Source of the DNA: Escherichia coli
GTDB taxonomy: Bacteria > Pseudomonadota > Gammaproteobacteria > Enterobacterales > Enterobacteriaceae
Reading direction: 5' to 3' (one strand)
Assembly (NCBI RefSeq): GCF_003334315.1
Contig: NZ_QOWR01000098.1
DNA: 5,044 nucleotides
Made by a program: the position numbers and the translations under genes. Shown in pieces: positions 695-5,044 of the stretch (positions within the stretch are counted from its first letter, which is position 1; each line of letters starts with the position of its first letter). The notes under the pieces were generated by a model. It was not told the DNA's origin. It worked only from the letters and a program-made list of their open reading frames with translations, and did no database searches.

Positions 695-1120
695 TCAATG
701 CACAGCCACAATATTTCCTGCAGGGCCACCACGATTCATCTGGTTGAAACCAGCGATCGCCACTGCGACAAAATCATCAGCGTCTCTCACCAGTCGTTCC
801 CGCGTCTCCACTAGTTCCCGAAAATAGGCTGAGCTATGGCTGCGCATTCGGGCCACCAGCAGAGGTGGCATTGCTTTTTCGATAGCTGGTAACAACGCCT
901 GAATTTTTTCAACTGCATCAGGGGTGTCTTTCTCTACCCAGCGGAAAATTTTCTGGGTATTGCGAGCCAGGGCTTCCGGATGGCTGTCGTCATACAGTTC
1001 TGGGAACGTCATACCCAGTTCAAAATAAGCCCTGGTTATTTCAGCTGCCGGAACTTTTTCACCGTCCGGATGCGCCCAGGCATTCATCGCCATGCGGATG
1101 TGTTCATGCTTGATTTTCAT
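695..1120 (-). CDS. ydaT: YdaT-like protein (CII-type regulator of Rac-like prophages)
   Basis: 141-aa minus-strand ORF beginning MKIKHEHI, with ATG at 1120-1118 preceded by AGGAG at 8-nt spacing. It overlaps the 3' end of the upstream ydaS-like gene by 17 bp, the arrangement expected for the ydaS-ydaT pair. Identity rests on remembered sequence similarity and synteny. Confidence 0.7.
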   Translation of the reverse strand: MKIKHEHIRMAMNAWAHPDGEKVPAAEITRAYFELGMTFPELYDDSHPEALARNTQKIFRWVEKDTPDAVEKIQALLPAIEKAMPPLLVARMRSHSSAYFRELVETRERLVRDADDFVAVAIAGFNQMNRGGPAGNIVAVH

Positions 1121-1385
1121 GAATCAAGCTCCTAGAAAGTGGTTGTGTTAACATTTTGGTATCTTCCAGCTCGGGCCAAATATTCATCCAATCAAAAGGC
1201 CTTAGTTGCTGACGTGTAACTTCACCATTACTGGCTCGCTCAATAAGGACACATAACGATGCCCCTAACACTTGACCTTTACTCAATGCCTTTCTTAGAT
1301 AACCGATGCTGGTACCACACTCGCATGCAAACATACGCTGTTCATCTGACGAAAGAGAATTGAGAAATATTCTTAATTCTTCCAT
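1104..1385 (-). CDS. ydaS: Cro/CI-type HTH DNA-binding protein, YdaS-like
   Basis: 93-aa minus-strand ORF with ATG at 1385-1383 preceded by TAAGGAGTAGCT (AGGAG about 7 nt upstream). It is divergent from the repressor gene across a 100-bp operator region and is followed by overlapping ydaT. The length differs from my recollection of K-12 YdaS (about 98 aa), so this may be an allelic variant. Confidence 0.6.
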   Translation of the reverse strand: MEELRIFLNSLSSDEQRMFACECGTSIGYLRKALSKGQVLGASLCVLIERASNGEVTRQQLRPFDWMNIWPELEDTKMLTQPLSRSLIHENQA

Positions 1386-1415
1386 AGCTACTCCTTAGTA
1401 AACACAGCAAAGAAC

Positions 1416-1490
1416 ACCCATAGGTAAACAAAAGTCAATACCCACAGGTTGTTTACCTTGCAGTAATCGCATCTATTATTTACCTATGGA
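1416..1490. promoter_or_regulatory. Divergent control region between ydaS and racR with three operator-like sites sharing the core AGGTAAA / CCATAGGTAAA
   Basis: Site A is ccataggtaaacaa at 1418-1432. Site B is its reverse complement ttgtttacct at 1449-1458. Site C is tttacctatgg at 1479-1489 (reverse complement ccataggtaaa), overlapping the racR ATG. On the minus strand a -35-like TTGACT (plus 1433-1438) faces ydaS, and a TATTAT -10-like hexamer at 1474-1479 faces racR. Confidence 0.55.
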
Positions 1491-1905
1491 CAAATATGAA
1501 TTTAGACGACAGCAACTCATCAAAATTCGTGATGAGAAATGCGATGGTAAAGCGGTTAACGTGGCCAGAAAGATCGGGCGCGAGCCTTCTTATGTATCAA
1601 GAATGTTGTACCCAGAGGGGAAAAAGGGAAAAAAACGGATCGCTGATGATATGGTGGAGATTATCGAAGAGTCCTTTGGGTTACCCCGGGGATGGATGGA
1701 TGGTATCGTTTCATCATCAACGAACACAGCCTCCAGTTATGAAACAAGGGTTCTAACGCCACGACAACGTATTTTTTTAGATCTCTTAGACGAACTGCCA
1801 GAAAGTGAAGCGGATAACTTATTAAAAACTCTTGAAGAGAAAAAACAGTATTACAATATGATCTACGAAGAAATCCGTAAAAAGAAAGCACAAAACGCAT
1901 CATAG
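1486..1905 (+). CDS. racR: Prophage repressor, RacR-like HTH protein
   Basis: 139-aa ORF divergent from ydaS, in the position of the immunity repressor. There is no in-frame upstream start (in-frame TAA at 1399-1401) and no Shine-Dalgarno before ATG 1486. Operator-like sites flank the gene on both sides. The length differs from my recollection of K-12 RacR (158 aa), so I call it RacR-like. Confidence 0.6.
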   Translation: MDKYEFRRQQLIKIRDEKCDGKAVNVARKIGREPSYVSRMLYPEGKKGKKRIADDMVEIIEESFGLPRGWMDGIVSSSTNTASSYETRVLTPRQRIFLDLLDELPESEADNLLKTLEEKKQYYNMIYEEIRKKKAQNAS

Positions 1906-1950
1906 CTCACCAAACAACTAGTCACCAGTTAAGACACCGCAAAAAGTTAC

Positions 1951-1981
1951 CCATGGGTATTTACTTTTTAAATACCTATGG
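1951..1981. promoter_or_regulatory. Imperfect palindrome ccatgggtattta / taaatacctatgg downstream of racR; operator-like and related to the sites upstream of racR
   Basis: Half-sites at 1951-1963 and 1969-1981 are inverted copies (12 of 13 match) and share CCATrGGTA with sites A and C. The overlapping hexamers TTTACT (1960-1965) and TATCCT (1983-1988) could form a rightward promoter towards ydaG/ydaF. Confidence 0.45.
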
Positions 1982-2159
1982 GTATCCTTCTTTTCATACC
2001 AACCCACCCCGCCCCACAGAATGCAGGGCAATACTTCGAGTTACCAGGCAGTGGTCAGGGGTTAAGTAGCCAGCCCGAGGCGTAAGAACATGACGGCGGG
2101 ATTCAAATTTTGCAGTGCAGCAGTTAGTTCCGCCACCCGGCGTTAAGGGGAGAGATAAG

Positions 2160-3093: not shown

Positions 3094-4188
3094 TTGTCTG
3101 TTAAATTTAAATGGTGGAGTGCGCCTCCGGTTGTAAATAACGACATTGCTGTGTGTAGTCCTGGCGGCATCAGTTTTTTTCTTGAAGTTCGGCTGATGTC
3201 CGCCCTTTTTAAAGTGAATTTTGTGATGCGGTGGGTTGAAGCTAAGGAAAATGATCCGGAGGAAATGGAAGGCGCTGAACATCCGCACAATGAGAATGCT
3301 GGCAGCGATCCGCATCGCGATTGCAGTGATGAAACTGGCGAAGTCGCAGATCCCGTAATCGTAGAAGACATAGAGCCAGGTATTTATTACGGAATTTCGA
3401 ATGAGAATTACCACGCGGGTCCCGGTATCAGTAAGTCTCAGCTCGATGACATTGCTGATACTCCGGCACTATATTTGTGGCGTAAAAATGCCCCCGTGGA
3501 CACCACAAAGACAAAAACGCTCGATTTAGGAACTGCTTTCCACTGCCGGGTACTTGAACCGGAAGAATTCAGTAACCGCTTTATCGTAGCACCTGAATTT
3601 AACCGCCGTACAAACGCCGGAAAAGAAGAAGAGAAAGCGTTTCTGATGGAATGCGCAAGCACAGGAAAAACGGTTATCACTGCGGAAGAAGGCCGGAAAA
3701 TTGAACTCATGTATCAAAGCGTTATGGCTTTGCCGCTGGGGCAATGGCTTGTTGAAAGCGCCGGACACGCTGAATCATCAATTTACTGGGAAGATCCTGA
3801 AACAGGAATTTTGTGTCGGTGCCGTCCGGACAAAATTATCCCTGAATTTCACTGGATCATGGACGTGAAAACTACGGCGGATATTCAACGATTCAAAACC
3901 GCTTATTACGACTACCGCTATCACGTTCAGGATGCATTCTACAGTGACGGTTATGAAGCACAGTTTGGAGTGCAGCCAACTTTCGTTTTTCTGGTTGCCA
4001 GCACAACTATTGAATGCGGACGTTATCCGGTTGAAATTTTCATGATGGGCGAAGAAGCAAAACTGGCAGGTCAACAGGAATATCACCGCAATCTGCGAAC
4101 CCTGTCTGACTGCCTGAATACCGATGAATGGCCAGCTATTAAGACATTATCACTGCCCCGCTGGGCTAAGGAATATGCAAATGACTAA
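3094..4188 (+). CDS. recE: Exodeoxyribonuclease VIII (RecE), N-terminally truncated: only the C-terminal exonuclease-domain portion is present
   Basis: The translation contains [35 protein letters not shown] ... [10 protein letters not shown], which I recognise as the C-terminal region of Rac RecE. The stop at 4186-4188 overlaps the recT start, as in the native recET operon. The reading frame is open from 3010. The track start at 3094 is TTG; the first in-frame ATGs are at 3196 and 3226 and neither has a good Shine-Dalgarno, so the true start, if any, is uncertain. Confidence 0.8.
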
Positions 4189-4867
4189 GCAACCACCAAT
4201 CGCAAAAGCCGATCTGCAAAAAACCCAGGGAAACCGTGCACCAGCAGCAGTTAAAAATAGCGACGTGATTAGTTTTATTAACCAGCCATCAATGAAAGAG
4301 CAACTGGCAGCAGCTCTTCCACGCCATATGACGGCTGAACGTATGATCCGTATCGCCACCACAGAAATTCGTAAAGTTCCGGCGTTAGGAAACTGTGACA
4401 CTATGAGTTTTGTCAGTGCGATCGTACAGTGTTCACAGCTCGGACTTGAGCCAGGTAGCGCCCTCGGTCATGCATATTTACTGCCTTTTGGTAATAAAAA
4501 CGAAAAGAGCGGTAAAAAGAACGTTCAGCTAATCATTGGCTATCGCGGCATGATTGATCTGGCTCGCCGTTCTGGTCAAATCGCCAGCCTGTCAGCCCGT
4601 GTTGTCCGTGAAGGTGACGAGTTTAGCTTCGAATTTGGCCTTGATGAAAAGTTAATACACCGCCCGGGAGAAAACGAAGATGCCCCGGTTACCCACGTCT
4701 ATGCTGTCGCAAGACTGAAAGACGGAGGTACTCAGTTTGAAGTTATGACGCGCAAACAGATTGAGCTGGTGCGCAGCCTGAGTAAAGCTGGTAATAACGG
4801 GCCGTGGGTAACTCACTGGGAAGAAATGGCAAAGAAAACGGGTGATGATGCCAACTTACTGATTTAG
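4181..4867 (+). pseudogene. recT: recT (RecT single-strand annealing recombinase) interrupted by IS1 after codon 220
   Basis: ATG at 4181 is preceded by AAGGAA. The translation [35 protein letters not shown] ... THWEEMAKKT matches RecT as I remember it. From 4841 the frame runs into the IS1 terminal sequence, adding GDDANLLI before a stop at 4865-4867. The track ORF start at 4124 is a spurious upstream extension. Confidence 0.85.
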
Positions 4868-5044
4868 TGTATGATGGTGTTTTTGAGGTGCTCCAGTGGC
4901 TTCTGTTTCTATCAGCTGTCCCTCCTGTTCAGCTACTGACGGGGTGGTGCGTAACGGCAAAAGCACCGCCGGACATCAGCGCTATCTCTGCTCTCACTGC
5001 CGTAAAACATGGCAACTGCAGTTCACTTACACCGCTTCTCAACC
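4841..5044 (+). mobile_element. IS1 insertion sequence, left end (IRL plus the first ~200 bp); continues past the window edge
   Basis: ggtgatgatgccaacttactgatttagtgtatgatggtgtttttgaggtgctccagtggcttctgtttctatcagctgtccc... matches the IS1 left terminal inverted repeat and the insA leader as I remember them, with one mismatch in the IR (GAT where I recall GCT). The exact junction is ambiguous by about 1 bp. Confidence 0.9.
4896..5044 (+). CDS. insA: IS1 InsA (transposition regulator / N-terminal transposase part), 5' partial
   Basis: GTG at 4896 is preceded by GAGGTG. The translation is [49 protein letters not shown], the InsA zinc-finger-like N-terminus. It is truncated by the window end. Confidence 0.85.

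Follow-up and report, generated by a model that had tools for sequence, protein, structure and literature searches.

Which sites control the immunity region of a Rac-type prophage when its repressor is unlike RacR of Escherichia coli K-12? The question is raised by a 5,044-bp stretch of E. coli DNA (contig NZ_QOWR01000098.1; hereafter the window), which is part of a Rac-type prophage and is 100% identical to strain H7 from position 1100 to 2470. It contains a repressor gene (1486..1905, + strand; an open reading frame for a 139-aa protein) transcribed divergently from a cro-like gene (1104..1385, − strand), with short related repeats present on both sides of the repressor gene.

Homology of the window to the Rac prophage of K-12 starts only at 1995, and the DNA to the left of this point – the repressor gene together with both clusters of sites – is, as judged from its sequence, an immunity module different from that of K-12 Rac. 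The homology to K-12 Rac and to six other immunity types sets in at the predicted start of the leftward promoter (PL), the boundary expected of an immunity module. Of 5426 complete E. coli genomes, 821 (~15%) have an intergenic region of the type found here.

Here, we argue that the repeats on both sides of the repressor gene are very probably its operators, arranged as the OR and OL operators are in phage lambda, and we infer that their specificity is that of phage mEp043 and not that of K-12 Rac. At this locus three putative operators separate the repressor gene from the divergent cro-like gene, and a second set sits at the leftward promoter; the locus also encodes a helix-turn-helix (HTH) protein and a cognate Cro homologue.

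Results

A 14-bp palindrome repeated on both sides of the repressor gene

The repeat unit is a 14-bp palindrome, wTACC-YRYR-GGTAw. With up to one mismatch, CCATAGGTA occurs six times in the window where 0.63 are expected, and TACC-N4-GGTA seven times where 0.97 are expected; neither count was reached in any of 200 shuffles. Perfect copies of TACC-N4-GGTA number two (0.04 expected), and both belong to the pair downstream of the repressor gene. The operator reading is supported because the motif is enriched and confined to two regulatory stretches, which hold five of the seven TACC-N4-GGTA matches.

Upstream of the repressor gene the sites lie at -71, -47 and -32 from its ATG. OR1 (CACCCATAGGTA, 1415..1426) overlaps the -10 element of PR, the predicted promoter of the cro-like gene, and its position (-71 to -73) is filled in nine other loci. 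OR2 (TACCCACAGGTT, 1439..1450) abuts the PR -35 element, is centred at about -41.5 from the predicted start of PRM, the promoter predicted for the repressor gene, and has a right arm that is degenerate in every locus compared. OR3 (TACCTTGCAGTA, 1454..1465; TACCTTGCGGTA in the majority E. coli allele) overlaps the PRM -35 element. A further site, site d (TACCTATGGACA, 1481..1492), covers the repressor ATG and the predicted +1. Its left half fits the motif perfectly, its right half (GACA) poorly, and the site forms an 11-nt exact inverted repeat with 1419-1429. It is unchanged in all 24 E. coli alleles and is found at none of the loci of other taxa, placing it in the E. coli lineage only; it is a possible fourth operator or half-site. 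Downstream, 43 bp past the repressor stop, OL2 (TACCCATGGGTA, 1948..1959) is a perfect palindrome just upstream of the PL -35 element, and OL1 (TACCTATGGGTA, 1973..1984) overlaps the PL -10 element. These are two tandem palindromes 25 bp apart, and hence both a direct and an inverted repeat.

A weight matrix trained solely on loci of other taxa, with which shuffled windows average 0.66 hits of at least 8 bits, ranked OL2 first (1947-1960, 20.1 bits), followed by OL1 (1972-1985, 19.3 bits), OR1 (1414-1427, 12.9 bits), OR2 (1438-1451, 11.3 bits) and site d (1480-1493, 9.6 bits).

An initial annotation of this DNA had described five related half-palindromes flanking the repressor gene. The repeats are real and non-random, and their units are full 12-14-bp palindromes rather than halves. 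Its first upstream site (1418-1432) is OR1, with the span corrected to 1415-1426; its second (1449-1458) covers just a 3-nt spacer and the left arm of OR3, and OR2 was left out. The third, over the ATG (1479-1489), corresponds to site d, of which only the left half fits the motif. The downstream inverted pair exists, as the two tandem palindromes OL2 and OL1. The lambda-like layout that it proposed, with operators at both the divergent genes and the leftward early promoter, agrees with all of the comparative evidence below, including the same three-plus-two arrangement in K-12 Rac.

The motif and its layout follow the DNA-binding domain

For comparison with diverse loci we used contigs encoding relatives of the repressor's DNA-binding domain; 80 E. 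coli loci whose DNA-binding domains are identical were used for polymorphism and not for divergence. In nine loci of other taxa or phages with the same domain, the motif is present at -72/-73, -47/-48 and -32/-33 from the repressor ATG, and a second pair, spaced 25-26 bp, follows the repressor stop at a distance of 113 to 1918 bp, behind any accessory genes. At every locus a -35-like hexamer (TTTACT, TAGACA, TTGATT, TTGACC or TTGACA) directly follows the first site of the pair, and at most loci, as in the window, the -10 element starts within the last two bases of the second site (GGTA/TATT; GGTA/TCCT in the window). In the reverse direction, 54 of 79 viral contigs fetched by the DNA pattern of the operator pair alone encode a relative of the domain.

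Natural domain swaps point the same way. Where the same DNA-binding domain is joined to a Peptidase_S24 (S24) C-terminus the operators are unchanged, and the CI protein of phage Tritos (3420-3836 of its locus), which has the same C-terminus and another HTH, is accompanied by a different motif. As negative controls, neither K-12 Rac nor Tritos has the motif at these places. Conversely, the published RacR motif, WTAGGC-N3-GCCTAW (PMC9638921), is absent from the window at up to two mismatches, versus five occurrences in K-12 Rac, three in the racR-ydaS region and two after racR. Taken from sequence, the architecture is common to non-homologous repressors on the Rac backbone, and the motif tracks the DNA-binding domain. 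A literature search on the motif and on the operators of mEp043 turned up no description of either.

Three intergenic operators of K-12 RacR have been footprinted, with O3 over the racR ATG (PMC9638921). At 2953-2992 of the K-12 Rac locus, two WTAGGC-N3-GCCTAW sites 25 bp apart flank TTGACA-17-TATAGT, just upstream of the leader that is conserved between the prophages. This downstream pair looks like the OL and PL of K-12 Rac, and it is not mentioned in the papers on RacR operators that were consulted.

Predicted promoters

The predicted PR (1411..1438, − strand) has a -35 element TTGACT (1438-1433), a 16-nt spacer and a -10 element TGTTCT (1416-1411), which is TATTCT in the majority E. coli allele. 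It was read from the sequence and is predicted because its geometry is common to PL and to the other loci: the cI-cro side mirrors the PL side on the opposite strand, in the order OR2, TTGACT, 6 nt, and OR1 over the -10 element.

PRM (1452..1479, + strand; TTTACC, 16-nt spacer, TATTAT) is the sole sigma-70-like hit of a promoter scan. The repressor ATG is 6 nt past its -10 element with no Shine-Dalgarno sequence, and the same spacing is present in seven other loci; this distance and the lack of a ribosome-binding site imply a leaderless repressor mRNA. Lambda CI activates PRM from a position that matches that of OR2. Leaderless precedents are lambda cI and paaR2 (PMC8630535).

PL (1960..1988, + strand) is predicted from TTTACT (1960-1965), a 17-nt spacer and TATCCT (1983-1988), with a start near 1995. 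It aligns column for column with the TTGACA-17-TATAGT of K-12 Rac and with the -35 and -10 elements of five other phages of other specificities, and its -35 hexamer is also found in Salmonella and Yersinia loci. In K-12, loss of RacR raises expression of ydaG, ydaF, kilR and racC 40-70-fold (PMC6765115), which fits a repressed promoter at the PL position, and in CP-933P both PaaR2 and YdaS repress PL933P (PMC8630535).

The repressor and the Cro-like protein

The repressor (PHROG 5736 'transcriptional regulator', E 4e-70) consists of an N-terminal HTH (approximately residues 1-75), a disordered linker (76-87) and two C-terminal helices. In an AlphaFold (AF2) model with a pLDDT (predicted local distance difference test) score of 80.7, the helices of the HTH are at 23-30 and 34-41. 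The best match of the model in the PDB is Rep of phage SPC32H (5d50_A; root-mean-square deviation 1.6 Å over 72 alignment columns), and others include C-proteins, HigA and lambda repressor, with probabilities of 0.97-1.0. The model thus supports an HTH DNA-binding domain of the XRE/CI type. In sequence searches, Pfam gave no hit on the repressor, Peptidase_S24 included, a PDB sequence search returned noise only, and BLASTP against K-12 RacR gave nothing, the best E-value being 2.3 over seven residues.

The N-terminal ~75-80 residues are 65-80% identical to mEp043 cI and to CI repressors of 220-240 aa with a Peptidase_S24 domain (PF00717) from Salmonella, Yersinia, Pantoea, Klebsiella and Edwardsiella. 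Short 136-139-aa proteins of Serratia and Yersinia have the domain too. Compared over 80 residues with eight other loci, the domain is 65-79% identical, and the predicted recognition-helix stretch REPSYVSRMLY, which includes the second helix of the HTH in the model, is common to seven of the eight. Residues 86-136 resemble the C-terminus of DicA (E 2.8e-5; profile positions 81-131), and the last 50 residues are ~75% identical to Tritos CI. The whole protein scores 23.9 bits against a cut-off of 101 for the DicA model NF007257 and so falls outside the DicA family.

The cro-like gene, annotated as ydaS or as 'transcriptional regulator' (93-aa product; PHROG 35), encodes a protein with 47-70% identity to the Cro of all loci with the same repressor domain and 29% to K-12 YdaS.

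Variation within E. coli and points against the operator reading

The 80 E. coli loci, all on viral contigs, encode an identical DNA-binding domain. In their intergenic region 9 of 16 operator-centre columns vary, versus 3 of 32 arm columns and 8 of 65 other columns, an excess at the operator centres (1419-1422, 1443-1446 and 1458-1461) with Fisher p of ~5e-4 to 9e-4. Gene conversion between sites, relaxed constraint and diversifying selection are possible causes.

Two arms are altered in the window itself. The left arm of OR1 is CACC for TACC (position 1415), an allele found in 1 of 79 E. coli loci, with TACC in all other loci examined; on the other strand this T-to-C change is an A-to-G change at -11, which converts the PR -10 element from TATTCT to TGTTCT. 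The A at -11 is a critical base of the -10 element, and PR may already be disabled in this copy. OR3 is AGTA for GGTA (1462), as in ~14 of 79 loci, with the G invariant in other taxa.

Several of these observations weigh against the operator reading. Conservation of the operator arms within E. coli does not measurably exceed that of the flanking DNA, and the arm mutations in OR1 and OR3 suggest a switch that may be partly decayed. OR3 of the window scores just 5.7 bits with the other-taxa matrix, a background level. The promoter scan made no PR call on the minus strand, the -10 TGTTCT being weak by consensus, and PL, with 8 of 12 consensus matches, is under the scan threshold. The structural matches of the repressor have Foldseek E-values no better than 2e-3. 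Finally, the motif co-varies no less tightly with the Cro homologue than with the repressor domain, and the sequence does not tell which of the two binds; by analogy with lambda, Qin and CP-933P, probably both do.

Alternative explanations

The downstream pair could have a second function. Read as RNA, 1948..1994 (+ strand) would fold into a 16-bp stem capped by a 5-nt loop, with a U-rich run after it (TCCTTCTTTT; also given as UCCUUCUUUU), a terminator-like hit with a folding energy of -22.9 kcal/mol and a z-score of -6.0. A dual role in this lineage, as operator in DNA and terminator in RNA, is plausible because there is no other terminator between the repressor stop at 1905 and 1948; we consider it possible, at clearly less than even chances.

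The sites might instead be recognised mainly or only by the Cro-like YdaS or by another factor, with the 139-aa protein acting elsewhere or inactive. In favour of this, motif and Cro homologue are inherited together throughout the loci examined, and the repressor lacks a Pfam HTH hit. Against it, a Klebsiella remnant has no cro gene but retains both the repressor and the sites; the recognition-helix region hardly varies among repressors that are 65-80% identical; and operators are common to the CI-type and the Cro-type protein in each of lambda, Qin and CP-933P (PMC8630535, PMC10448788). As for another factor, the recognition sequence of YdaT differs and sits elsewhere (1110-1127). We regard this reading as very improbable.

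The hairpin could also be all there is, with the downstream pair (1948-1984) serving only as the intrinsic terminator of the repressor gene and its likeness to the upstream sites incidental. The stem, the U-rich run and the lack of another terminator would all be accounted for, but a hairpin does not need each arm to be palindromic in itself, and no other positions in the window score as high as the two arms with the matrix from other taxa. Moreover, the nine other loci have the pair as well, as far as 1.9 kb away from the repressor gene; a T-run is mostly lacking there, -35 and -10 elements are always in register, and mEp043 has its own GC-rich terminator ~50 bp upstream of the pair. A role in termination alone is thus highly improbable. 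That the repeats are chance or a duplication relic with no present function is barely credible and runs counter to the comparative data. In its favour, OR3 and site d are weak and this copy has mutations in two arms; but the counts exceeded those of every shuffle, and the layout is kept across genera in which the DNA between the sites and the flanking genes differ.

The leftward operon leader and other features of the window

A conserved 5' leader of the leftward operon (1995..2159, + strand) precedes ydaG (2160-2294, + strand) and ydaF (2305-2460, + strand). Its sequence of ~160 nt is highly conserved, and at least seven immunity types have it behind the promoter that follows the repressor gene: K-12 Rac, Tritos, Evi, 640R1, 606R7, Actinobacillus phage pPE4 and the window. 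The conservation begins at the predicted transcription start, ~1995. A structured RNA (e.g. put-like) was considered and rejected (z-score -0.23; no compensatory pairs in seven sequences), as was a conserved leader peptide, since neither frame nor stop is kept among the variants. Rfam reported no family on the regulatory region and leader, and no HK022-type phage was among the DNA matches of the leader. An antitermination or processing signal is a possibility.

Beyond ydaF, sieB (2457-2945, − strand) is followed by the 3' part of recE, recT and an IS1 end. Between sieB and recE is a candidate DicF-like small RNA (3150-3205, + strand; Rfam RF00039, 39.1 bits, below the gathering score of 48), and phage Tritos has an annotated DicF at the equivalent position. 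At junction 3233/3234 the window lacks 3.4 kb of strain H7 (kilR::IS1, ydaE, racC and recE codons 1 to ~549), and the C-terminal nuclease part of recE is joined to an upstream reading frame (3094-4188). The loss brings the leftward promoter much nearer to recET and resembles sbcA-type rearrangements. Among the complete E. coli genomes listed, the matches are in two to four pieces across 7.4 to 9.1 kb, and none appears to have the 3233/3234 joint. The IS1 end (4838-5044) breaks recT ~150 nt ahead of its stop.

On the other side of the cro-like gene are ydaT (695..1120, − strand; PHROG 163 'CII-like activator'), a CII analogue whose product is 33% identical to K-12 YdaT, and a replisome-organizer gene (18-629, − strand). 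A perfect YdaT-box (TTGATT-N6-AATCAA, as defined in PMC11879457 and PMC9986795) is present at 1110-1127, with the ydaT start codon within its spacer; it has the same form as the CP-933P YdaT site and is one base off the K-12 Rac box. Positions 1-77 have no match to strain H7, and PADLOC found nothing.

Discussion

The motif, the layout, the way both are inherited along with the DNA-binding domain, and the homologous positions of the promoters lead us to infer the following scheme for binding, occupancy, PRM activation and induction. Dimers of the 139-aa repressor would bind the 14-bp palindromes through the N-terminal HTH. Filling of OR1 and OR2 would turn off the cro-like gene, ydaT and the replication genes, and OR2, at about -41.5 from the PRM start, would be placed for self-activation of the kind known for lambda CI. 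Either OR3, on the PRM -35 element, or site d, over the ATG, could give negative autoregulation of the leaderless repressor mRNA. OL2 and OL1 bracket the PL -35 element and overlap the -10, and would control a transcript running from ~1995 into ydaG, ydaF, the DicF-like RNA and recET. The Cro-like protein probably competes for the same sites. With no S24 domain in the repressor, induction would probably proceed by an antirepressor and not by RecA-stimulated cleavage; an antirepressor controls DicA (PMC8630535, PMC10448788).

The arrangement resembles that of lambda: three operators occupy the interval between a repressor gene and an oppositely oriented cro gene, and a second group belongs to the leftward early promoter past the repressor gene. 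Also common to both are operators that overlap -10 and flank -35 elements, one site at ~-42 from PRM, a leaderless repressor mRNA and an intrinsically weak OR2. The arrangement differs in that the operators here are 14 bp with 4-bp arms and a variable YRYR centre, whereas those of lambda are 17 bp; OR2 and OR3 are 15 bp apart centre to centre, there are two clear OL sites only, and OL lies 43 bp past the repressor stop with no rex-like genes between. The repressor here has no S24 autocleavage domain, and there is no N gene or nut site, the conserved leader standing in that place.

The closest relatives in specificity are mEp043 and prophages with S24-type CI repressors, which share the DNA-binding domain (65-80%), Cro (47-70%), the motif, the -72/-47/-32 layout and the geometry of the OL pair. 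In this group, however, the repressor has a Peptidase_S24 C-terminus where a short helical DicA-like one is found here, and mEp043 has lambda-type cII, N and nutL where the window has ydaT and the Rac leader. With K-12 Rac the window shares the prophage backbone, the gene position, the three-plus-two layout and the 25-bp pair flanking a -35 element upstream of the same leader, but the repressors have no sequence similarity and the RacR operator (PMC9638921) is not found in the window.

Similarities also extend to CP-933P PaaR2 and Qin DicA, which are short CI analogues without RecA cleavage, with OR- and OL-like operators and promoters of the PL933P/dicBp type (PMC8630535, PMC10448788). The C-terminal part of the repressor resembles that of DicA, and with CP-933P the window shares a leaderless repressor mRNA and the YdaT-box (PMC8630535). 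When operators and gene order are compared, PaaR2 has the repeat consensus GTTTAGTAA and paaA2-parE2 downstream, in contrast to TACC-N4-GGTA and ydaG here, where no toxin-antitoxin genes follow the repressor.

The initial annotation had called the repressor RacR-like and, on the ground that derepressed ydaS and ydaT are reported to be toxic in K-12 and that racR for this reason behaves as essential, had taken the operators to be the key safety switch of the element. The repressor belongs instead to the group sharing the mEp043 cI DNA-binding domain, and the neighbouring genes are not those of K-12: YdaS and YdaT are only 29% and 33% identical to their K-12 namesakes, too diverged for toxicity or essentiality simply to be carried over. 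The K-12 data (PMC5700373, PMC5700377) are themselves disputed: the case has been made that YdaS is a Cro analogue and YdaT a CII analogue (PMC5917428, PMC8630535). The low identity of both proteins and a PR that may be disabled by the -11 A-to-G change leave the idea of an essential safety switch unsupported for this element.

The OR/OL architecture itself is textbook, having been shown or proposed for lambda, Qin (DicA), CP-933P (PaaR2) and, on the OR side, K-12 Rac, and the textbook picture of lambdoid immunity is unchanged. What is new here, as read from the sequence, is the operator specificity of a known kind of switch. The analysis gives a predicted function and a DNA target to a protein annotated as 'hypothetical', provides a natural domain-swap series linking an operator motif to a DNA-binding domain, and yields as a by-product a predicted leftward operator pair and promoter for K-12 Rac. 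It also shows that at least several immunity modules, unrelated to one another, occur on the single backbone of 'Rac' prophages, and results obtained with K-12 RacR are therefore not transferable by position alone.

We suggest, tentatively and as something rather unlikely, that a single operator specificity is common to the SOS-cleavable S24-type CI repressors of active phages such as mEp043 and to a short, uncleavable repressor with a DicA-like tail. If the short repressor does bind the same operators, a cryptic Rac-type element would give its host SOS-proof immunity to incoming phages of that group, and it could also restrain co-resident SOS-inducible prophages of the same specificity. The hypervariable YRYR centres could then mark an arms race over fine specificity.

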